From a phage, in NCBI GenBank assembly GCA_021146965.1, contig GCA_021146965.1_4847.1: 46,431 nt of DNA; one strand, 5' to 3'. The position numbers and the translations under genes are program-made. This document shows positions 3,142 through 45,127 of the stretch, piece by piece; position 1 is the first letter of the stretch; every line of letters begins with the position of its first letter. Below the pieces are notes generated by a model. The model was not told the origin of the DNA and made no database searches. It saw only the letters and a list, made by a program, of their open reading frames with translations.

Positions 3142-3281
3142 ATCACCTTGTCCTCATCAAAAATCACGCCAATAACGCGAAGTAAGTCTTTCGCCATGCG
3201 TTCCGCTTCCTCGTAGTCGTAACCTGCATCAACATACAAATCAGTGTAGAAAATCAGGTCAGCTTTTGTTTGTTCGTTCAT
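3138..3281 (-). CDS. small hypothetical protein (47 aa incl. stop)
   Basis: ORF MNEQTKADLIFYTDLYVDAGYDYEEAERMAKDLLRVIGVIFDEDKVI linking two flanking genes by ATGA overlaps at both ends; below ORF-track size cut-off. Confidence 0.4.
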   Translation of the reverse strand: MNEQTKADLIFYTDLYVDAGYDYEEAERMAKDLLRVIGVIFDEDKVI

Positions 3282-3472
3282 TTCTTGTCGCCACTGTTAA
3301 CTAATGCCCAAACAAGTGCCGCAACCCATCCAATAAAGCTCCACCCGACAAGAATATTCAGTACACAGATTGCTGTCGTGTTTGTGTGCTTGCGTTGCAA
3401 AGCCACAAATGATGGAAGAAGATAAACAAATATAACCAATCCAGCAAAAAGCAACAAAATAACAACATCCAT
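3278..3472 (-). CDS. superinfection-immunity-like small membrane protein
   Basis: 64-aa ORF with two hydrophobic helices; motif YLLPSFVALQRKHTNTTAICVLNILVGWSFIGWVAALVWAL resembles the Imm_superinfect family signature (LP..IA..R.H.N..aI...N...GWt.iGWv.AL.WA) from memory. Confidence 0.5.
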   Translation of the reverse strand: MDVVILLLFAGLVIFVYLLPSFVALQRKHTNTTAICVLNILVGWSFIGWVAALVWALVNSGDKK

Positions 3473-3530
3473 AACTCACCTCATTCATATCTCGTTTCGA
3501 TGATTTGAATCTACATCACCACCTCGCAGG

Positions 3531-3556
3531 TGTCAACACTACTGAGATGATATAAT
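3531..3556 (+). promoter_or_regulatory. putative sigma70 promoter with extended -10 (TGaTATAAT)
   Basis: TGTCAACAC 3531-3539 and TGA+TATAAT 3548-3556, ~30 nt upstream of 3586 ATG. Confidence 0.45.
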
Positions 3557-3585
3557 CAACATCAGTCAAATTCAGGATGCAAAAC

Positions 3586-4323
3586 ATGAGCAATCGCACG
3601 CCACTAACAGAAATCGGGGAGATGCGCATCTCGCTTTCTGACAGGAGTTTTTTCTTTAAGCCATCATTCCGTGCCATGAATGAAATTGGCACGCCAAAAG
3701 AAATCGTCGAGGTATACGCTAAGCTCAATGGCATTGATTATATTGCGCCGTTGCAGCACGTCGAATACCTGCCATTTGGCGCGCAGATGCAGGTTATGAA
3801 GACCATCAGCAAACCTGTGTATGGTCGCCATGTACTGAGCGCAGCCTATATCGTCATGCAATCATGCTGTGAAGATGATATTTCTGTGCTGATTGGTGGA
3901 TGGAAGCCAACACCGCGCGGTGTGCGATACGTGCCGGGAGTAATGCCAATTGGCGGCACTGGACATTTGCCAGGTGGAACAGGTGGAATTATTGAGATTG
4001 CCCGCTCATTAATGGAGCACGGCATTATTGGCAAATCACCACTCAAAGTGCCTGAGCGTCTGGAAGAGCAGGGTAAGAAAACCACAAATGAGTTTCATGC
4101 GTCGCAATACATCATCTCAGCGCGCACGCATTTCGACATGACGCGTGATGAGGCCGAAAACCTGTCCATGACAGAGTTTCAGATGATGATTAAAAATAAA
4201 TATCCAGAGCCGAAAGGGTTAACGAAAGAAGAGCGCGCGGCAGAGTACGATCAGGCTAAAGCAGACCGTGAGCGCATGAAGGCACTGGCTGAACGCAAAG
4301 CGAAAAAAGCGAGGAATACATAA
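3586..4323 (+). CDS. putative tail assembly chaperone
   Basis: ORF immediately upstream of tape measure gene (1-nt overlap TAATG); start moved from 3577 to ATG 3586 for AGGA spacing; basic C-terminus; function assigned mainly by position. Confidence 0.45.
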   Translation: MSNRTPLTEIGEMRISLSDRSFFFKPSFRAMNEIGTPKEIVEVYAKLNGIDYIAPLQHVEYLPFGAQMQVMKTISKPVYGRHVLSAAYIVMQSCCEDDISVLIGGWKPTPRGVRYVPGVMPIGGTGHLPGGTGGIIEIARSLMEHGIIGKSPLKVPERLEEQGKKTTNEFHASQYIISARTHFDMTRDEAENLSMTEFQMMIKNKYPEPKGLTKEERAAEYDQAKADRERMKALAERKAKKARNT

Positions 4324-15428: not shown

Positions 15429-16055
15429 TCACTCTCCGTGGTTACAGAATTCTTTATGCATCTTTTCTCTGAATTTCATCACAGACAACCTCGCTCTCTC
15501 AATATCATTGAATAACCCAAGATGGTATCTTTTCCCGTTAACATCACAGTAAGCATGCCACTTTTTAACCTGTTTTTGCCAATACACACCTTTAACTCCT
15601 GATGTGTTATTTTTTGGTTTTTTAGCGTTATACTGGTTCTGCATATTTGTTGCGATTCTTAAGTTGCAAATCCTGTTATCGTCACGCACACCGTTAATGT
15701 GATCAATTTGACCTTCAGGCCAGAAACCATAATAAATCAACCATACCAAGCGATGCGCGTAGTATCTTTTATTATTTATGCTTATCTCTATGTATCCGTT
15801 ATGTTTTTTCCTGCCAGCGACACTACCCTTTCTTACACCTCCACCCGTCTTATTTCTAATGAAAACCCCTGTTTCATGGTTGTAATTTAAGCTATCCAAA
15901 ACAACATAACGTGGTATTCTTTTTCTTCTTCCTATGGTGTTTGACTCTGCACTTCCCTGAGCAAAATCTTGCTTTTGCAGTTCCGATAAACTCATTTCCA
16001 CAAACCTCGCACTTCTTAACGGTGATAGCCATTTCTTACCCTCTATTGTAATCAT
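15429..16055 (-). CDS. HNH homing endonuclease with AP2 DNA-binding domain (paralog 1 of 4)
   Basis: IDHINGVRDDNRICNLR HNH motif plus AP2-like SGVKGVYWQKQVKKWHAYCDVNGKRYHLGLF; paralogous to 25547..26059, 34748..35260, 36012..36542. Confidence 0.8.
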   Translation of the reverse strand: MITIEGKKWLSPLRSARFVEMSLSELQKQDFAQGSAESNTIGRRKRIPRYVVLDSLNYNHETGVFIRNKTGGGVRKGSVAGRKKHNGYIEISINNKRYYAHRLVWLIYYGFWPEGQIDHINGVRDDNRICNLRIATNMQNQYNAKKPKNNTSGVKGVYWQKQVKKWHAYCDVNGKRYHLGLFNDIERARLSVMKFREKMHKEFCNHGE

Positions 16056-25546: not shown

Positions 25547-26059
25547 ATGCGACCCTTAAAAGAAGAAAAACTCACGCAAGACAGGCTGAAAGAGTTGCTG
25601 CATTATAACCATGATACTGGTATTTTCACATGGGTTCAGCGCGCCTCAAAAAGCGTAAGAGTTGGTAATTCAGCTGGCAGTAAGAATAAGTCAGGCTATA
25701 TAGATATACGCATCGATAAGTCTTTACACAAAGCTCATCGGCTTGCGTGGCTTTACATTTATGGTGTGTGGCCCAATGGGAAAATAGATCACATCAATAA
25801 CGTGAAGACAGATAACAGAATCTGCAACCTGAGAGAAGCAAGCAATAATGAAAACGGATGGAATGCTGGTAAACCATCGACAAATACGTCAGGAGTAAAA
25901 GGTGTGAGTTGGGATGCAGAGAAAAATAAATGGAAGGCGCATTGCAGGGTTTTTGGGAAAAAATATACAGTAGGTAGGTTTTCATCAAAAGAATATGCTG
26001 AGAGAGCCGTGGCGGAGTTCAGAGAGAAACATCACGGGGAGTTTTTTAATCATGGCTAG
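25547..26059 (+). CDS. HNH homing endonuclease with AP2 domain (paralog 2 of 4), inserted between terS and terL
   Basis: IDHINNVKTDNRICNLREA motif plus AP2-like SGVKGVSWDAEKNKWKAHCRVFGKKYTVGRF; 3' end overlaps terL start. Confidence 0.8.
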   Translation: MRPLKEEKLTQDRLKELLHYNHDTGIFTWVQRASKSVRVGNSAGSKNKSGYIDIRIDKSLHKAHRLAWLYIYGVWPNGKIDHINNVKTDNRICNLREASNNENGWNAGKPSTNTSGVKGVSWDAEKNKWKAHCRVFGKKYTVGRFSSKEYAERAVAEFREKHHGEFFNHG

Positions 26060-34206: not shown

Positions 34207-34471
34207 TATGATCCTCCACAATCCGCACCAGTGAGCACTCAAGATTCGGTGCATTGTAATTACCAGCCAGAAACAGCACGCTACCAGTGCTAATAAGCAC
34301 CTGCTTCTCGTTCGCCTGCGACAGATTCTGCACGATGAATTGCGCTGTTTCTGTGCCGATTTTCAGCACTGCGCTGCCGTCGCTGTTCAGTGATACAAGT
34401 TGTGCGGAAGTGTCAGTAATGTTGGTGAAGTTCGCGTTTCGCTGCGCGATTGTGATGTCGCAAAAAGACAT
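34196..34471 (-). CDS. hypothetical protein
   Basis: 91-aa ORF in leftward cassette. Confidence 0.4.
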   Translation of the reverse strand: MSFCDITIAQRNANFTNITDTSAQLVSLNSDGSAVLKIGTETAQFIVQNLSQANEKQVLISTGSVLFLAGNYNAPNLECSLVRIVEDHNGE

Positions 34472-34773
34472 TATTTAATCTCTCCGTTCAGTTCATTAAC
34501 AATTAACGTTGCATAGCCAGCAATATCTTTCCAGCTGTCATCATAAGTCGGGTCGCCATTCAGAATGCGCCCAATCTTGTGCTGAATCATGTCGAGCGCC
34601 TCGCGTTGACTTGGTGTGAGATTGCGCCAGCCATCTACCTTGCGCATCACATCTTTCAACTCCTGCATAATTTCAGCGCCGTCTTTGAATTTACCGTATC
34701 GACTACCGCGTTCGGTGATGAGTCGCTCTGTTGCGTCAGTATGGCGCTTATCGCCCGTGATTTGTGAACTCAT
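34471..34773 (-). CDS. hypothetical protein
   Basis: 100-aa ORF, ATG start. Confidence 0.45.
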   Translation of the reverse strand: MSSQITGDKRHTDATERLITERGSRYGKFKDGAEIMQELKDVMRKVDGWRNLTPSQREALDMIQHKIGRILNGDPTYDDSWKDIAGYATLIVNELNGEIK

Positions 34774-35260
34774 TGTGATGCATTCTCCTGAATTCTTTTA
34801 TTTTTGCTTCTGCTTCTCTTATGTCGGAAAAGTAACCAACTGTGAATCTTTTGCCATTTACTCCAACTCTTGCATGCCACTTGTTGTGCGATGAACTCCA
34901 GTTAACCCCCTTGATACCGCTAGTGTTGTTTTTGTTCATTGCTTTGTTGTGGCTATTCTCAAATTTGCTGGCCTCCCTTAAATTGCACGCCCTGTTGTCA
35001 TTGCGAATGCCATTAATGTGGTCAATCATTTCACTTGCTGGCGCGCCATGAATGCATATCCATGCCAATCTGTGAGCAAGAAAAGCCCTACCGCAAAGAA
35101 TTATTTGCACATATCCATCTGGCTTTAAGTAGCCAGCCACACTCCCTTTTTCTGCAATCCTATTCCTTGTCTTTAGCCATTTAAATTCCCCAGTTAGTGG
35201 ATTGTAGTAAAGGTAACTCAATATAAACTCCCTACTCGGCTCATCTCTCCTATGCCTCAT
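34748..35260 (-). CDS. HNH homing endonuclease with AP2 domain (paralog 3 of 4)
   Basis: IDHINGIRNDNRACNLREA plus AP2-like SGIKGVNWSSSHNKWHARVGVNGKRFTVGYF. Confidence 0.8.
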   Translation of the reverse strand: MRHRRDEPSREFILSYLYYNPLTGEFKWLKTRNRIAEKGSVAGYLKPDGYVQIILCGRAFLAHRLAWICIHGAPASEMIDHINGIRNDNRACNLREASKFENSHNKAMNKNNTSGIKGVNWSSSHNKWHARVGVNGKRFTVGYFSDIREAEAKIKEFRRMHHNEFTNHGR

Positions 35261-35463
35261 TTCTCATCCTCTTTCATTGTCACCCTATTATTCTCGTCAA
35301 CACTGAAGTTGGCCCGAATCAAATCATACATATCTTCCTTAGGCATATCAGCCAGCGCCACATAGCAACGGGCGAAGTAGCGAACATCACGGAGTGTCAG
35401 CGGTTGTCGCTTCTCCACAATGCTGGTGATAATGTCCATCGGCTCGCGTCGTGGTCTTGGCAT
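35257..35463 (-). CDS. hypothetical protein
   Basis: 68-aa ORF, ATGA-coupled to HNH gene downstream. Confidence 0.4.
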   Translation of the reverse strand: MPRPRREPMDIITSIVEKRQPLTLRDVRYFARCYVALADMPKEDMYDLIRANFSVDENNRVTMKEDEK

Positions 35464-35490
35464 ATTTACTACTCCTTCTCGAAAAACATC

Positions 35491-35535
35491 TTGACGTTTC
35501 TACATCATTTAGTCAATACTTGTTGACGTAGATTG
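35491..35535. promoter_or_regulatory. divergent promoter/operator region with tandem TTGACG... motif copies
   Basis: TTGACGTTTCTACATCA (35491-35507) and TGTTGACGTAGATTG (35521-35535) between divergent genes 35257..35463(-) and 35563..35760(+). Confidence 0.45.
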
Positions 35536-35562
35536 TACCACAACGGAAAAGGTGATGTGGAA

Positions 35563-35760
35563 ATGCGATACAAAGAAATAGCAGCGAGATACCAGAAGGA
35601 AGTTCGCGAGGTTATGGAAATCCTTAACGTTCGCGAGGATACCATTAAGTTTGTGGAAACCGCCATGTGTTCACTGGCGCTTGAAGCGGAGGTTGCGGGT
35701 CGTGAAAAGGCTGACGAACTTATATCTGCGGTGGTTTATAGTTCAACCAGTAACGGTTGA
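35563..35760 (+). CDS. hypothetical protein
   Basis: internal ATG of track ORF 35533..35760 with AAAGGTG RBS. Confidence 0.4.
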   Translation: MRYKEIAARYQKEVREVMEILNVREDTIKFVETAMCSLALEAEVAGREKADELISAVVYSSTSNG

Positions 35761-35820
35761 AGATGAAGGTTATCTGTGCGTTGAGCACGTTGTTATCAAA
35801 TTCTACGGGAGAAATTATAA

Positions 35821-36015
35821 ATGGCGCATGACGAACTGTACGAAGAATCGTTAATCCAGAGGTTGAATGAAGTTGAGCGCACTCGCGAATGGCTGGAGTG
35901 CGAGTTACGAGAAGTGCGCAACCGCCTGCAACGCAAGCGCAGTCAGCAAAGAGATGTCATCGACTGGTCTGGGGGTACACCTAAATTTAACAATCTGGGA
36001 GAATGGTTGAAATGA
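35821..36015 (+). CDS. hypothetical coiled-coil protein
   Basis: 64-aa ORF. Confidence 0.4.
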   Translation: MAHDELYEESLIQRLNEVERTREWLECELREVRNRLQRKRSQQRDVIDWSGGTPKFNNLGEWLK

Positions 36016-36542
36016 GCAACATTAGTAAGGAAAGCATTTTAAAGTTCCTCCAGCATGATGAAAATACAGGAAACTTTCTATGGATTGATAATTTCTCAAG
36101 AAAATCAAAGAAAGGGAAGGTGGCTGGAGGTATTACATCGCATGGGTATTGGAGAATTCAACTCCCCATCGGGAGGTTTTACGCACACAGAATGGCGTGG
36201 ATTGTTTGCAATGGAGATATACCAAACGGATATGAGATTGATCACATAAATGGGAACAAGAAAGATAATCGCATCAGCAACCTAAGATTGGTCACAAGAG
36301 GTCAAAATGTTATGAATGTAGGCGTGAAAAACAATAATACAAGCGGAGTTAAGGATGTTGTTTGGGACTCTTCGCGAGAAAGGTGGAGGGTTCAAATTAC
36401 AGCCAATGGCAAGCATTATTATGGAGGTAGATTCTCGTCAATAACACAAGCAAAAGAGGAGAGGAACAGGCTCATAAAGATGGTTCACGGGAAATTTTTG
36501 AATACAAAAGGTGAGCAATATGACACTACTAATGAACGATGA
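36012..36542 (+). CDS. HNH homing endonuclease with AP2 domain (paralog 4 of 4)
   Basis: IDHINGNKKDNRISNLRLV plus AP2-like SGVKDVVWDSSRERWRVQITANGKHYYGGRF; ATG 36012 with GGGAGA RBS. Confidence 0.8.
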   Translation: MSNISKESILKFLQHDENTGNFLWIDNFSRKSKKGKVAGGITSHGYWRIQLPIGRFYAHRMAWIVCNGDIPNGYEIDHINGNKKDNRISNLRLVTRGQNVMNVGVKNNNTSGVKDVVWDSSRERWRVQITANGKHYYGGRFSSITQAKEERNRLIKMVHGKFLNTKGEQYDTTNER

Positions 36543-36756
36543 GAAATTACTTGAATGCCCGTTTTGTGGTTGTGATGACGTAAGTGTTATTGATGACGGC
36601 GAATGGTTGCACGTTGAGTGCGGAGATTGTTTTTGCCGCACTGACTCGTATTGCTGCGCATCCACGGCAATGAAGAAATGGAACACAAGAGGTGGACACC
36701 TCTACACTTCCGACGACTTCAATCAGGCAGCAGAGGAGCGTGATTATGGACTATAA
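36520..36756 (+). CDS. Lar-family restriction alleviation protein (zinc ribbon)
   Basis: LECPFCGCDD...HVECGDCFCRT...AMKKWNTR pattern matches the Lar restriction-alleviation family as recalled; start 36520 or 36532. Confidence 0.5.
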   Translation: MTLLMNDEKLLECPFCGCDDVSVIDDGEWLHVECGDCFCRTDSYCCASTAMKKWNTRGGHLYTSDDFNQAAEERDYGL

Positions 36757-37234
36757 ATCACAAATCATGCGCGTGATTATGAATCACCCCGGAGCAACGC
36801 GCGCATACATTGAGAAGCATTGCGGAGGTAAGCATTCAAGCACCACAACGCATCGCTTACATGAGATGCTTGCTCTTGGATTCATTCGTCGCGAGAAGTC
36901 AGTGATTCGCGGCGGCAAGTGGCAGTATAAATATTTCATCTCTGATGATGCAGCCGGTATTGATGATGCTATTAAGTGCCATTTGCTTGATAACGCTGGC
37001 GCGGAAGTGAAAGAAATCAGTACCACCACTGGCATTGATTATCGCATCGTGAAAAGCCGCATCCGCATTATGTTTCATAACGGTGATGTGACGCGAAGCT
37101 ATGACCACCACAAGAAGCTGTGGCGTTATTCATGGAAGGAGAAGGAAGTCAATGTAAGCAATCTATTTAATTCACTTCTTCGCAGCGTAAGGGGTCAGCA
37201 TGGGAAAAGCCAAACGCAAGAAGCAAGAGTATGA
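36746..37234 (+). CDS. hypothetical protein with two tandem winged-helix-like repeats
   Basis: internal ATG with GAGGAG RBS; two similar ~55-aa repeats; C-terminal end uncertain. Confidence 0.4.
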   Translation: MDYKSQIMRVIMNHPGATRAYIEKHCGGKHSSTTTHRLHEMLALGFIRREKSVIRGGKWQYKYFISDDAAGIDDAIKCHLLDNAGAEVKEISTTTGIDYRIVKSRIRIMFHNGDVTRSYDHHKKLWRYSWKEKEVNVSNLFNSLLRSVRGQHGKSQTQEARV

Positions 37235-37372
37235 ACCTCTACCGCCATGCGAAATGTCAGGAATGCCGCAGCAGGAGGATGTGATTCTCACCGAGGCTGA
37301 GTGGCGCAAGGTGGCAAGAGTGCAAATCATGTTCCGCAAACTTGCTGAGGATGTACTAAATGAAATGGGCTA
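37199..37372 (+). CDS. small basic hypothetical protein (57 aa)
   Basis: ORF MGKAKRKKQEYEPLPPCEMSGMPQQEDVILTEAEWRKVARVQIMFRKLAEDVLNEMGY in alternative frame bridging flanking genes; below track cut-off. Confidence 0.3.
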
Positions 37373-37713
37373 TTAAGCATAAATCCGGCAGAACTCTGTT
37401 TGTAACATCGGATGAGTTTATTGCCAATAACCGTAGAAAGATGGGCTGGATAGTAGAGGAAGTGAAGATGACGAGTAGAGAGCAGTTTGAGCTCCAATGC
37501 AGAAATGGGTTGATCAATGGCGGATTAGCAGTGTTTGAAAATGGTGTTTACGCTTCCGAATTAACAAGAGCTGTCTGGGCTGGATGGAAAGCATCGCGCG
37601 CAGCAATTGAAATTGAATTGCCAGAGGAAGAAAGTTTGGGATGCCACGCTATTTACTATGCAGAAGATGTTATTGAGGCAATTGAACAATCAGGCTTAAA
37701 GGTGAAAAAATGA
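37360..37713 (+). CDS. hypothetical protein
   Basis: 117-aa ORF. Confidence 0.45.
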   Translation: MKWAIKHKSGRTLFVTSDEFIANNRRKMGWIVEEVKMTSREQFELQCRNGLINGGLAVFENGVYASELTRAVWAGWKASRAAIEIELPEEESLGCHAIYYAEDVIEAIEQSGLKVKK

Positions 37714-38036
37714 TTATCCAACTAAACGACATTATGAAAGCAGACATCATTCAGCTTGAAGATTATGACGTGCAACTGGCGTTTGAAATCGAAACAGTTG
37801 AGCGTCAGCTGCAGTATGCTGATAAGAAGAATGATCGTGTCTGGCACGAGAAAGCACTTAAGGCGCGCGACCACATGAAACGCACGCGAGCGCTTATCAA
37901 AACGCGACTCGACAAGCTGTATTTTGGTGAAGAACGCATGTTGCATGGCGCGATACTGGCGCAAATCCGCAAGGAAATGCCAATTGGCAAGTTTATGTCA
38001 TACGTTCACCGCGCAAAGCAGGAGGCCGGGTTATGA
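37710..38036 (+). CDS. hypothetical protein
   Basis: 108-aa ORF, ATGA-coupled. Confidence 0.45.
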   Translation: MIIQLNDIMKADIIQLEDYDVQLAFEIETVERQLQYADKKNDRVWHEKALKARDHMKRTRALIKTRLDKLYFGEERMLHGAILAQIRKEMPIGKFMSYVHRAKQEAGL

Positions 38037-38221
38037 GCGAACCAAAATTTCCAGAGCTGCCTGTTGAGGTTCAGGTTGCATTGATCAATGCGGCAAGTGC
38101 AATGGCGACAAAGAAGATTGAGGCAATAGGCAGTGATTACAACAGGAGCATAGACTGGTTTCAGAGGGAGTATCAAAAAATCTGCGACGCACTCTACAAA
38201 GAAAACAGAGGTAGATCATGA
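38033..38221 (+). CDS. hypothetical protein
   Basis: 62-aa ORF, ATGA-coupled. Confidence 0.4.
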   Translation: MSEPKFPELPVEVQVALINAASAMATKKIEAIGSDYNRSIDWFQREYQKICDALYKENRGRS

Positions 38222-38364
38222 TTTCATTGCTTTGGATATTATCAGCATATGCATTTGCGAGAGTATTTGAGGCCGACACTCTGTACCAGATGATTTGCTA
38301 TGGCGCTCTGTTCTGTCTCTCTGGTGCTGCGCTCGCATTCATTGATGATGTGATTTCAGAATAA
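38218..38364 (+). CDS. small membrane protein (48 aa)
   Basis: two short hydrophobic helices; ATGA-coupled; below track cut-off. Confidence 0.35.
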   Translation: MISLLWILSAYAFARVFEADTLYQMICYGALFCLSGAALAFIDDVISE

Positions 38365-38558
38365 CTCCGTATATCTTTTGTTCATCATGGGCTGCTATCA
38401 TTTAATCAGGAAGTAGCCCATGAACATAATCCCTATCACTTACTTTCTCACGCTATACGCACTCACCAATTCGCCATTGTTTGCACTGGCTACCGCCTCG
38501 TGGTGCTATATCTCCCTGTGTTATAATTCGACCACAAACTAACCGTGGAGAGTTAACC

Positions 38559-40452
<1,894 letters not shown>

Positions 40453-43522: not shown

Positions 43523-44059
43523 CTACAGACGCATAGGCATAACAACAATCTTCGCAGTCTCTCCAGATGGCGCACTAAGACAGCAAACAGCGGCATCTGT
43601 GTTTCCATTTAGTTCAAATTTAACGCAACAGAATCTTGGGTTAAACAGCTTTGCCACCTTCTCGATATCAACAAGGTAGCCAGCATTGAAGCCAATTTTC
43701 TCTGCCGGCAAGGTCTGATTCGGAATGACGCGATCAATATCAGGGAATCGACCATCAATCTCTTCGCAGATACCTGCTCCAACCATCGCGCCGGCTTCAT
43801 CATGATACGTTGCAATTTTCGACTTTGTATCAATGATGGCGTGCTCATAACGCTTTGTTGGTGACTTGCCAATCTTGATGATTACATTTTCTGTCAGCTT
43901 ATTGTCATGGTTGCCACCAATAAATGCGCGATGACCGTCAGTTGAGGCAATGCGACCATCTTGCATAAAGCAAATACCATTCAGGTAGTAGCGCACATCA
44001 TTGCGAGCCTGAAAGATTAATGCTGATTCAAGTAATAATTTGCTGATTTTTAGTTTCAT
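43523..44059 (-). CDS. truncated DnaN (DNA polymerase III beta sliding clamp)-like protein
   Basis: ~178 aa; N-terminal ~115 aa align with E. coli beta clamp domain II (NDVRYYLNG, STDGHRAF, EEIDGRFPDIDRVIP vs QDVRYYLNG, ATDGHRLA, KLVDGRFPDYRRVLP); C-terminal ~60 aa align with the end of domain III and finish with VVMPMRL, identical to the DnaN C-terminus; start at ATG 44059 (AGGTG RBS). Confidence 0.7.
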   Translation of the reverse strand: MKLKISKLLLESALIFQARNDVRYYLNGICFMQDGRIASTDGHRAFIGGNHDNKLTENVIIKIGKSPTKRYEHAIIDTKSKIATYHDEAGAMVGAGICEEIDGRFPDIDRVIPNQTLPAEKIGFNAGYLVDIEKVAKLFNPRFCCVKFELNGNTDAAVCCLSAPSGETAKIVVMPMRL

Positions 44060-44232
44060 CACTTCACCTTAATCATGTGTTGTTTTGCAACCTTCAGGCA
44101 TTCTTCAAAAATGCCACCATTCTTTGCGCTCTGATTGCGCTTGTAATACTGAATTGCCGCATCAATTGCCATCTGGTCGATTTCAGGCAGTTTTGCGCGC
44201 AGCTGTTTTTCGATGAATTGTTCGGCGTTCAT
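44059..44232 (-). CDS. small hypothetical protein (57 aa)
   Basis: ORF MNAEQFIEKQLRAKLPEIDQ...; stop overlaps start of DnaN-like gene; below track cut-off. Confidence 0.4.
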   Translation of the reverse strand: MNAEQFIEKQLRAKLPEIDQMAIDAAIQYYKRNQSAKNGGIFEECLKVAKQHMIKVK

Positions 44233-44317
44233 TTTTCAACCTATTTGCAGTATGGGCACGTTGATTTCGTTCCGCTACCACCATGTCGTGGGCAACATAT
44301 TTTCTCTATTGGTGTCA

Positions 44318-45127
44318 TCACATCTTCTCCAGAATTGCCATAACCTCGTGAATGTCAGCAACAGGAATCTGAATAAATTCCTCATCCTCTGCCACCACAT
44401 GACCAGCAGGGAGAATTACATGGTCAGCTGGCTTCAGTAACTCAATCAGGCGGTCTACTGGCTTAATCTTTTTCGACTTCAGCACTTTGGCTGTGACCTT
44501 ATCCTTGCCTTGCGCCTTCGCTTCTTCGACCGCTTCGTCGATAACTTTTACCGCATCATCTCCATGTTCGCGCGTTACCGCTACGGCATTTGCATAGCTG
44601 ATCTGTCCGGCACTGATTCGCGCTTTTACTTCCGCAGGCACATCACCCAACGACAGGTGCATTTGCACGTCAGATACTGAGCGGCCTACCTTCTTGGCGA
44701 TTTCCTCGTTTGTCCAGCCAAAACCTTTCAGACGCGTGTAAGCCTTTGCGCGTTCAAACGGGTCAAGTTGCTTGCCCTGACTTGATGACACCATGAATGC
44801 GATTTTGTCAGCCTCGTCGCCAGTAAAATCCTTACACTCAATGCGAACGATTGGTGCGCCGCGCTCAATGGCTCGCAATGCGCCGAGGTAGCGATGCTGC
44901 CCATCAAGAATGCGGATACCTTTATCGTCAGGAATAACTGTTAATGCTGGCAATGGCTGACCTGACTCCCAGCACTGCGCGAAATATTCCACATGCTGCT
45001 CATCTGCTTCACGGATGTTGTATCCCGGCTCCAGATAGATTTGCTCTACTGGCACGAGGTAGGTTTTGTTAACAGCGATACCGTTACGCGTTTCTTTGTC
45101 TGAATAGATTTTGCTTAGTGTTTTCAT
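44318..45127 (-). CDS. ParB-like protein (ParB/Srx N-terminal domain plus HTH)
   Basis: ILDGQHRYLGALRAIERGAPIVRI matches ParB/sulfiredoxin-fold core; central TNEEIAKKVGRSVSDVQMHLSL resembles ParB HTH. Confidence 0.6.
   Translation of the reverse strand: MKTLSKIYSDKETRNGIAVNKTYLVPVEQIYLEPGYNIREADEQHVEYFAQCWESGQPLPALTVIPDDKGIRILDGQHRYLGALRAIERGAPIVRIECKDFTGDEADKIAFMVSSSQGKQLDPFERAKAYTRLKGFGWTNEEIAKKVGRSVSDVQMHLSLGDVPAEVKARISAGQISYANAVAVTREHGDDAVKVIDEAVEEAKAQGKDKVTAKVLKSKKIKPVDRLIELLKPADHVILPAGHVVAEDEEFIQIPVADIHEVMAILEKM

Follow-up and report, generated by a model that had tools for sequence, protein, structure and literature searches.

The DNA analysed here, the whole of which is called the window, is the 46,431-nucleotide (nt) contig GCA_021146965.1_4847.1 (GenBank assembly GCA_021146965.1), which makes up essentially the whole genome of a virulent, Skatevirus-like siphovirus infecting Escherichia coli. 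The gene of interest, on the plus strand at positions 36520–36756, codes for a small zinc-ribbon protein of the Lar family, the family of the Lar/RalR protein of the Rac prophage. Its open reading frame (ORF) starts with an ATG at 36520, ends with a TAA at 36754–36756 and encodes 78 amino acids (aa) plus stop (MTLLMNDEKLLECPFCGCDDVSVIDDGEWLHVECGDCFCRTDSYCCASTAMKKWNTRGGHLYTSDDFNQAAEERDYGL); it was matched by PF14354, phrog_599 and Rac Lar/RalR. A Shine-Dalgarno sequence GGTGAG, read from the sequence, is present 4 nt upstream of the ATG (36510–36515), within the 3' end of the preceding gene, an HNH homing endonuclease ORF at 36003–36542 with which the Lar ORF shares its first 23 nt. The 2-kb region around the gene was 96% identical to Escherichia phage vB_Eco_ZCEC08 and, piecewise, about 90% identical to some 150 phages of Escherichia, Salmonella and Shigella. 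The product is 100% identical to ZCEC08 protein WVQ01307.1, labelled "hypothetical protein", and orthologues at the locus are often already named "Lar-like restriction alleviation protein" in GenBank. Homologues were found at this locus in 202 phage records and 53 IMG/VR loci. The four cysteines, W54, N55 and R57 were invariant among them, and the ratio of nonsynonymous to synonymous differences (pN/pS) outside the variable core of the gene was 0.08–0.22. Because the homologues are widespread, these residues invariant and the pN/pS low outside the core, the ORF is not due to chance and was confirmed as a real gene. The first-pass annotation had described it as a small cysteine-rich zinc-ribbon ORF, and both motifs that it quoted, ECPFCGCDD and CGDCFC (here within ECGDCFC), are found in the translation. 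Its placement of the gene in an "accessory" region had to be abandoned: Lar and the winged-helix gene downstream form a pair conserved throughout the phage group, the HNH gene alone being accessory, and Lar is a conserved core gene of the Skatevirus-like siphoviruses.

Several segments, all on the plus strand, could be distinguished within the gene. Zinc knuckle 1 (C13-P-F-C16, 36556–36567) showed no variation among the alleles, RalR and diverse members of the family, and the two cysteines of zinc knuckle 2 (C34-G-D-C37, 36619–36630) were invariant as well. The hypervariable core of the Lar domain, aa 18–53 (36571–36678), was delimited by column entropy, the distribution of core types, the ratio of nonsynonymous to synonymous substitution rates (dN/dS) and the limit of DNA homology. 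The signature motif W54-N55-T56-R57 (36679–36690) lies 3' of the helix; its W, N and R were invariant family-wide, with a pN/pS of 0.08. The gene ends with a lineage-specific conserved C-terminal tail (GGHLYTSDDFNQAAEERDYGL, 36691–36753), in which AlphaFold (AF2) predicted, at low confidence, a helix at residues 64–75. Inside the codons for E-E-R the tail contains a Shine-Dalgarno sequence GAGGAG (36733–36738), also read from the sequence, belonging to the downstream gene.

The matches and a structural model place the protein in the broad Lar family, with a predicted Elf1-like zinc ribbon followed by a helix. The Pfam search proposed as a check in the first-pass annotation gave a match to PF14354 (Lar_restr_allev) of 39.7 bits, the gathering threshold being 28.6 (E 6e-10, profile positions 1–57 of 58), so that the suspected resemblance to Lar was borne out. 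It was further seen with PHROG 599, "Lar-like restriction alleviation protein" (E 1.6e-15), and in a BLASTP comparison with Lar of the Rac prophage (b1348; 32% identity over 53 aa, E 1e-10). In an alignment of RalR with 16 diverse representatives the invariant positions were C-P-(F)-C, C-x2-C and W-N-x-R, and the window protein has all of them: C13, P14, F15, C16, C34, C37, A50, W54, N55 and R57 align with invariant columns, and A-x3-W-N-x-R is present. At position 56, threonine is the majority residue of the family where RalR has K52. The AF2 model, of moderate quality (mean predicted local distance difference test score, pLDDT, of 68, reaching 77–85 over residues 11–50), showed a beta-hairpin zinc ribbon and then a helix. 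Its top structural neighbours among viral proteins (BFVD) were Lar-annotated proteins, and the top PDB neighbour was the zinc ribbon of Elf1 (6ir9 chain M). Comparing the Lar sequence with those of solved structures gave nothing significant (best E 0.5), no Pfam family other than Lar was found in it at E <= 0.1, and PADLOC returned nothing for Lar or its winged-helix partner. The window protein is neither an orthologue of Rac Lar nor a RalR equivalog, since the cutoffs of both NCBIfam TIGR03655 and the RalR toxin equivalog NF007260 (27.5 bits, cutoff 113) were missed. The wider family comprised 6,593 cluster representatives at E <= 1e-3; the conserved tail is missing in RalR and was present in approximately 6 of the 150 best family representatives. 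Scanning 10 long Lar-family proteins revealed no catalytic partner domain, only Lar repeats. In one case from the literature, a DnaE1 paralog ends in a C-terminal Lar-like domain (PMC3919608). As a side observation, tandem Lar-type zinc ribbons, with 2–5 copies per protein, were common family-wide (for example in P0043, P0048 and P0054), and some two thirds of the best 150 representatives had at least two copies, an architecture not implied by the family name.

The Lar domain proved to be extremely diverse at a fixed place. Among the Escherichia and Salmonella phages the flanking genes showed 90–95% protein identity, compared to 48–65% for Lar. Column entropy was 2–3 bits at residues 18–53, save at the cysteine ligands and T41/D42, while the N-terminus, the WNTR motif and the tail all stayed below approximately 1 bit. 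When the cores were grouped by single linkage at 60% identity, 16 types were separated in 54 genomes, and three of these types were common to the Escherichia/Salmonella and Klebsiella lineages. In loci L029 and L044 the core DNA was 95% identical and the ends 84%, and the greater closeness of the cores shows a recent cassette transfer. Synonymous divergence was saturated across the whole domain, residues 5–57 (pS of approximately 0.73–0.77). In the tail pS was 0.34, compared to about 0.74 in the domain, which indicates that the tail belongs to the backbone together with the partner gene; DNA homology with most relatives picks up again at 36664–36678, just 5' of the WNTR motif. Within types, dN/dS was 0.18 in the core, no different from the value of the conserved ends (0.15). 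Each core type is thus functional and constrained rather than decaying, and relaxed constraint was ruled out as the cause of the variable core by this same value. The whole zinc-ribbon domain is therefore an exchangeable, anciently diverged cassette, of which each type is under purifying selection. The core type of the window, common to ZCEC08 and C1/S192 only, is the most RalR-like and has the third cysteine of CPFCGC. Another core type (L023, L025, L027, L034, L047 and L050) was observed to have a one-residue deletion in knuckle 2, C-E-C-G-C in place of the C-x-x-C of window aa 34–37, and because of this deletion it must use another ligand spacing.

Downstream, on the plus strand, lies the gene for a probable tandem winged-helix (MarR-like) protein of 162 aa (36746–37234), matching phrog_1687 "MarR family" with an E-value of 4.6e-58. 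Its ATG at 36746 overlaps the Lar stop by 11 nt. Of the 53 loci having both genes, 50 kept this overlap of stop and start (48 in the modal register and 2 one base off), and the gene order was maintained even in the Klebsiella-phage lineage, where the winged-helix protein was only about 36% identical. The constant neighbour of Lar is this gene and not the HNH gene, and the sequence arrangement indicates that Lar is set up for co-translation with it. The structural assignment of the partner is less firm. Pfam MarR_2 scored 19.2 bits, below the gathering threshold of 27, and HTH_24 matched 6 of 10 members of the partner lineage below threshold (best E 1.3e-5). A comparison of the partner profile with the PDB pointed, again below threshold, to HosA over residues 7–76 and to the winged helix-turn-helix of AF2008 over residues 73–131 (E 0.0056). 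Weak family pointers, equally sub-threshold, were to MarR/HosA in the first of these segments and to AF2008, AspA, TrmB and TFE in the second. The AlphaFold model of the partner, made from a shallow alignment (pLDDT 45), was too poor to bear out the second winged-helix unit. The second half also weakly resembled PHROG 142, "Ren-like exclusion protein" (E 8.3e-7). A tandem winged helix is a reasonable but not firmly shown assignment; of the tandem winged-helix protein previously placed 3' of Lar, the adjoining gene stands and both halves point to a winged helix, the matches all being sub-threshold. An apparent fusion of Lar and the winged-helix protein in Shigella phage Sf11 (gp46, 232 aa) did not stand up, since the long ORF runs in a different frame and lacks a Lar match; gp46 thus represents an over-long gene call. 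A promoter and terminator scan of 35200–38600 gave counts not above those of shuffled sequence.

On the other side, the AP2-HNH homing endonuclease ORF overlapping the start of Lar (36003–36542, plus strand) matched HNH_3 (PF13392; 71.9 bits against 24.8, E 3.4e-20), phrog_99 HNH endonuclease (2.7e-58) and PADLOC "HEase". AP2 (PF00847) scored 17.5 bits (E 0.005), below its cutoff of 33.3. Four such paralogs with 37–46% mutual identity were counted in the window, at 15429–15929 (minus), 25547–26056 (plus), 34748–35260 (minus) and 36003–36542, and the last is paralog 4, whose number and overlap with Lar had been correctly called. Fifty-three related IMG/VR loci and ZCEC08 were compared with the window. 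All showed the same order: a conserved upstream gene of 64 aa (35821–36015 in the window, plus strand, phrog_15697), a variable slot, Lar, and the winged-helix gene. An HNH gene 5' of Lar was found in the window and ZCEC08 only, among approximately 55 genomes, and is a lineage-specific insertion; in the other genomes the slot was empty (20 nt) or contained an unrelated 73-aa ORF or an insert of about 330 nt. Every slot module, that is Lar itself, the 73-aa ORF, the 330-nt insert and the HNH gene, starts at one stop/start junction (...GAATGGTTGAAATGAG), formed by the stop of the 64-aa gene and ATGA, which constitutes the modular insertion point (36010–36020 in the window, approximately 2975–3000 in L019 and 2755–3000 in L006). 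DNA homology between the window and its relatives ended at 36015–36019. The usual N-terminus of Lar, MSAPHMP (about seven codons), is swapped in the window for MTLL by the HNH 3' end. Beside this insertion, two Klebsiella-lineage contigs (L045 and L049, approximately 3221–3646) had a different HNH gene between Lar and the winged-helix gene, with the tail of Lar replaced (GGFVYSNSDYEDINDEVRS); this HNH insertion beside the Lar domain is independent of the one in the window. As HNH insertions occurred in two independent lineages, the junctions flanking Lar are hotspots.

The upstream HNH gene is a selfish element, unrelated to Lar and inserted where different phages accommodate different small gene modules. 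Its restriction to the window and ZCEC08, at such a hotspot, makes the co-location with Lar incidental: the adjacency pointed out in the first-pass annotation is real, and a functional meaning is not supported by an association seen in 2 of about 55 genomes. The possibility that the HNH gene and the divergent Lar allele travel as one homing cassette was ruled out as a general rule, because C1/S192 has the same allele type (88% identity) with a different small ORF and no HNH, and because no further genome has this HNH gene here. As to the AP2-HNH paralogs, relatives had other subsets at other positions. A 100-aa ORF on the minus strand (34471–34773) overlaps the end of paralog 3; it matched Pfam DUF6378 above the gathering threshold (30.4 bits), and PHROGs named "phosphofructokinase", a label that looks doubtful. 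Elsewhere in the window a tRNA gene was present on the minus strand at 1543–1616 (RF00005, 56 bits), and ZCEC08 has a tRNA-Ile at the matching place.

What the protein does can be approached from Rac Lar and from phage lambda. Rac Lar was described genetically as alleviating restriction by EcoKI and enhancing modification, like lambda Ral (King & Murray 1995, in the account given in PMC4041452). Lambda Ral turns M.EcoKI into a de novo methylase via HsdM's N-terminal domain, with an effect on type IA enzymes only, types IB and IC not being affected (PMC12707154, PMC3874165). In the reading that we tentatively put first, and which we hold to be possible rather than probable, the window protein would be a Lar/Ral-like, non-catalytic binder acting on HsdM of type IA enzymes. 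The AF2 model suggests for the Lar domain, of about 50 residues, an adaptor-like fold with nothing enzymatic about it. Since there is no nuclease fold and the long family members consist of Lar repeats without enzymatic partners, the protein would most likely act by binding a host protein and would not be a catalyst. If Rac Lar and lambda Ral are a guide, its most likely target would be the HsdM methyltransferase core of type IA enzymes, for instance EcoKI and EcoBI. Once bound, it would shift the enzyme to de novo methylation, and replicating or co-infecting phage genomes would then be modified rather than cut; protection would be expected to be partial and to extend to no systems but type IA. 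Sixteen domain types, with a dN/dS of about 0.18 in each, and their transfer across lineages form an arms-race-like signature that speaks for this Lar/Ral reading, in which the diversity of domain types would mirror adaptation to variable host targets.

Judged from its sequence, the phage is open to attack by type IA enzymes. With 5 EcoKI sites (about 7 expected) and 18 EcoBI sites, the window is not depleted. The cytosine-specific DNA methyltransferase adjoining ParB in Bas77 (Bas77_0044) and ZCEC08 (WVQ01320) had no tblastn match in the window, where the corresponding site (44232–44318) is an interval of 86 nt between a 57-aa ORF (44059–44232) and ParB (44318–45127, minus strand); the 87-aa "anti-restriction protein" of Bas77 had no homologue in the window either. 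As a separate observation, EcoBI sites (TGAN8TGCT) were over-represented, with 18 occurrences against 10.9 +/- 3.2 expected, a number matched in 2 of 100 shuffles.

A number of observations weigh against the Lar/Ral-like reading, and the phenotypes of relatives come foremost. The BASEL collection holds five Skatevirus isolates, and tblastn confirmed the Lar-like gene in Bas77, Bas79 and Bas81. The BASEL paper describes a marked sensitivity of these isolates to restriction-modification (RM) systems. Efficiencies of plating (EOP) on EcoKI were 0.08 for Bas77, 0.03 for Bas78, 0.1 for Bas79 and 0.2 for Bas80, each with one EcoKI site, and 6e-4 to 2e-3 for Bas81, which has two sites and was restricted about 1000-fold. 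On the type I system EcoCFT_I the BASEL raw values ranged from approximately 6e-4 (Bas77–79) to approximately 1e-2 (Bas81), those of Bas77–80 lying around 1e-3, and the AntiDefenseFinder output in the BASEL supplement has no Lar match for these phages. The relatives carrying Lar thus show no obvious protection on EcoKI or EcoCFT_I. Relief of the Ral type is partial. As these efficiencies are those of wild-type phages, with no knockout comparison, they are compatible with a modest effect of Lar and lend it no positive support. On the side of the sequence, TIGR03655 (anti_R_Lar) gave 34.2 bits, below its cutoff of 39.6, while Rac Lar scores 55.3. The function would be transferred, at 32% identity, from one protein whose own role is contested: Guo et al. 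2014 described RalR as a Mg/Ca-dependent, non-specific DNase toxin restrained by the antisense RNA RalA, and stated that it does not inhibit restriction-modification (PMC4041452). One function shared by the family is unlikely, because the family is very large and architecturally diverse. A search of the literature for work on the function of PF14354 turned up annotation mentions only. Finally, a core gene so tightly coupled to a DNA-binding protein would be unusual for an anti-restriction moron.

This coupling is the basis of another explanation, in which the Lar zinc ribbon and its tandem winged-helix partner would form a two-component DNA-binding or transcription regulator, either of the adjacent operon of small genes and head genes or in host takeover, with the tail mediating the contact and restriction not involved. 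The stop/start overlap and gene order kept in 50 of 53 loci, even with a partner only 36% identical, argue for such a pair. So do the conservation of tail and partner gene as a single backbone (pS 0.34) next to a Lar domain that is exchanged, the transcription factor Elf1 as nearest solved fold, and the position of this core gene of the phage group in a rightward operon running into the head genes. We nevertheless consider it somewhat unlikely: the dedicated partner of a protein conserved at 90–94% would hardly tolerate 16 radically different domain types, the HNH gene of L045 and L049 splits the two genes and replaces the tail, and Rac Lar has no such partner. In a further explanation, Lar would be an anti-defence protein directed against some host system distinct from type IA RM, the hypervariable domain then being a surface tuned to another variable immunity or exclusion factor. 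Many old, individually constrained domain types swapped between phage lineages with different hosts, the lack of clear EcoKI protection in the relatives, the breadth of the Lar family and the weak resemblance of the second half of the partner to the PHROG 142 "Ren-like exclusion protein" (E 8.3e-7) are all in keeping with it. We judge this explanation unlikely, as no homology was seen to validated anti-defence proteins besides Lar, PADLOC gave no match, and the BASEL relatives showed sensitivity to each of the six RM systems in the test and, to a varying degree, to Old. In a broader form, the Lar position would be a counter-defence diversity locus, in which a fixed scaffold (the N-terminus, the four cysteines, WNTR and the tail coupled to the winged-helix partner) would carry at least 16 ancient, constrained cassettes swapped among Escherichia, Salmonella and Klebsiella phages, each matched to a variant host target, for example HsdM N-terminal domains belonging to various type I families, or some other immunity protein. 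This proposal we regard as distinctly doubtful; if true, the natural allelic series could settle the real role of the Lar-family proteins.

That the protein might be a RalR-like DNase toxin, cleaving DNA non-specifically and for example degrading host DNA, has to be considered since it belongs to the same Pfam family as RalR, at 32% identity. The RalR residues that lower toxicity or DNase activity when mutated are at positions 14, 37, 39, 49, 51 and 52. In the ungapped BLASTP register, the toxicity residues C14, T37 and N51 have identical counterparts (C18, T41 and N55) and R49 is conservatively replaced (K53); however, Y39 is unmatched (S43), and K52, whose K52Q mutation abolishes the DNase activity, corresponds to T56. 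As WNTR is the family norm, K52 is a peculiarity of RalR. The fold is a 50-residue zinc ribbon without nuclease-like neighbours, the equivalog score remained at 27.5 for a cutoff of 113, and a hypervariable core is hard to square with a conserved active site. The genes flanking Lar are protein-coding and on the same strand. No RalA-like RNA exceeded any Rfam threshold in the window, where the scan at gathering thresholds returned only the tRNA at 1543–1616, the existence of a Rfam model for RalA not having been verified. The toxin explanation therefore seems highly improbable, and the Lar/Ral-like binder is retained as the leading, tentative reading.

Overall, the proposal of a Lar-type anti-restriction gene linked to a homing endonuclease is partly supported by our analysis: membership of the Lar family holds, the HNH link is incidental and the anti-restriction role is unproven. 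The annotation itself is routine, pipelines already giving the orthologues the Lar-like name. The label is weaker than it looks, with one contested founder and with well-phenotyped carriers that are still strongly restricted, and it is therefore not evidence of anti-restriction capacity when selecting therapeutic phages such as ZCEC08. As far as literature searches show, neither the variety of exchangeable domain types nor the conserved link of the domain with a winged-helix gene has been described, and both are of modest interest. A host-interaction module would be expected to look like this, with a swapped zinc-ribbon domain, a conserved tail and a winged-helix partner, and the natural variant set at the locus is usable for testing the function of the Lar family.

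Among known systems, Elf1, the eukaryotic and archaeal transcription elongation factor, resembles the window protein at the level of the fold only (6ir9 chain M, 21% identity), and a shared function is not implied. Lambda Ral is a functional analogue, a small phage protein that genetically does the same job as Lar (type IA alleviation and modification enhancement), with no detectable sequence relationship to the window Lar; Ral and RalR, at 24% identity, were called unrelated by Guo et al. (PMC4041452). Lar/RalR of the E. coli K-12 Rac prophage (b1348, 64 aa) is the founder of PF14354 and TIGR03655. The window protein shares with it CPFCGC, CxxC, the helix and the WN(K/T)R motif, and the third cysteine of CPFCGC is found in RalR and in the allele type of the window and C1, whereas most Skatevirus alleles are without it. 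Unlike RalR, the window protein has a conserved C-terminal tail of 21 residues and T56 for K52, and it scored far below the equivalog cutoff and just below that of TIGR03655. The Rac gene lies 3' of recT, facing the antisense RNA RalA, in a lambdoid prophage, whereas the window gene is coupled to a winged-helix gene in a virulent siphovirus. The Skatevirus-like orthologues (for example Bas77_0030, swi2, VSt472, STGO-35-1 and Vi II-E1) have a different domain type, with 48–65% protein identity to Lar of the window compared to flanks about 90% identical, and they share the conserved N-terminus of which the first seven codons or so are swapped in the window for the HNH 3' end. The closest other allele, that of C1/S192, is 88% identical and has no HNH gene. 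The locus, the flanks, the WNTR motif, the tail and the overlap with the winged-helix gene are the same in these Skatevirus-like orthologues as in the window.

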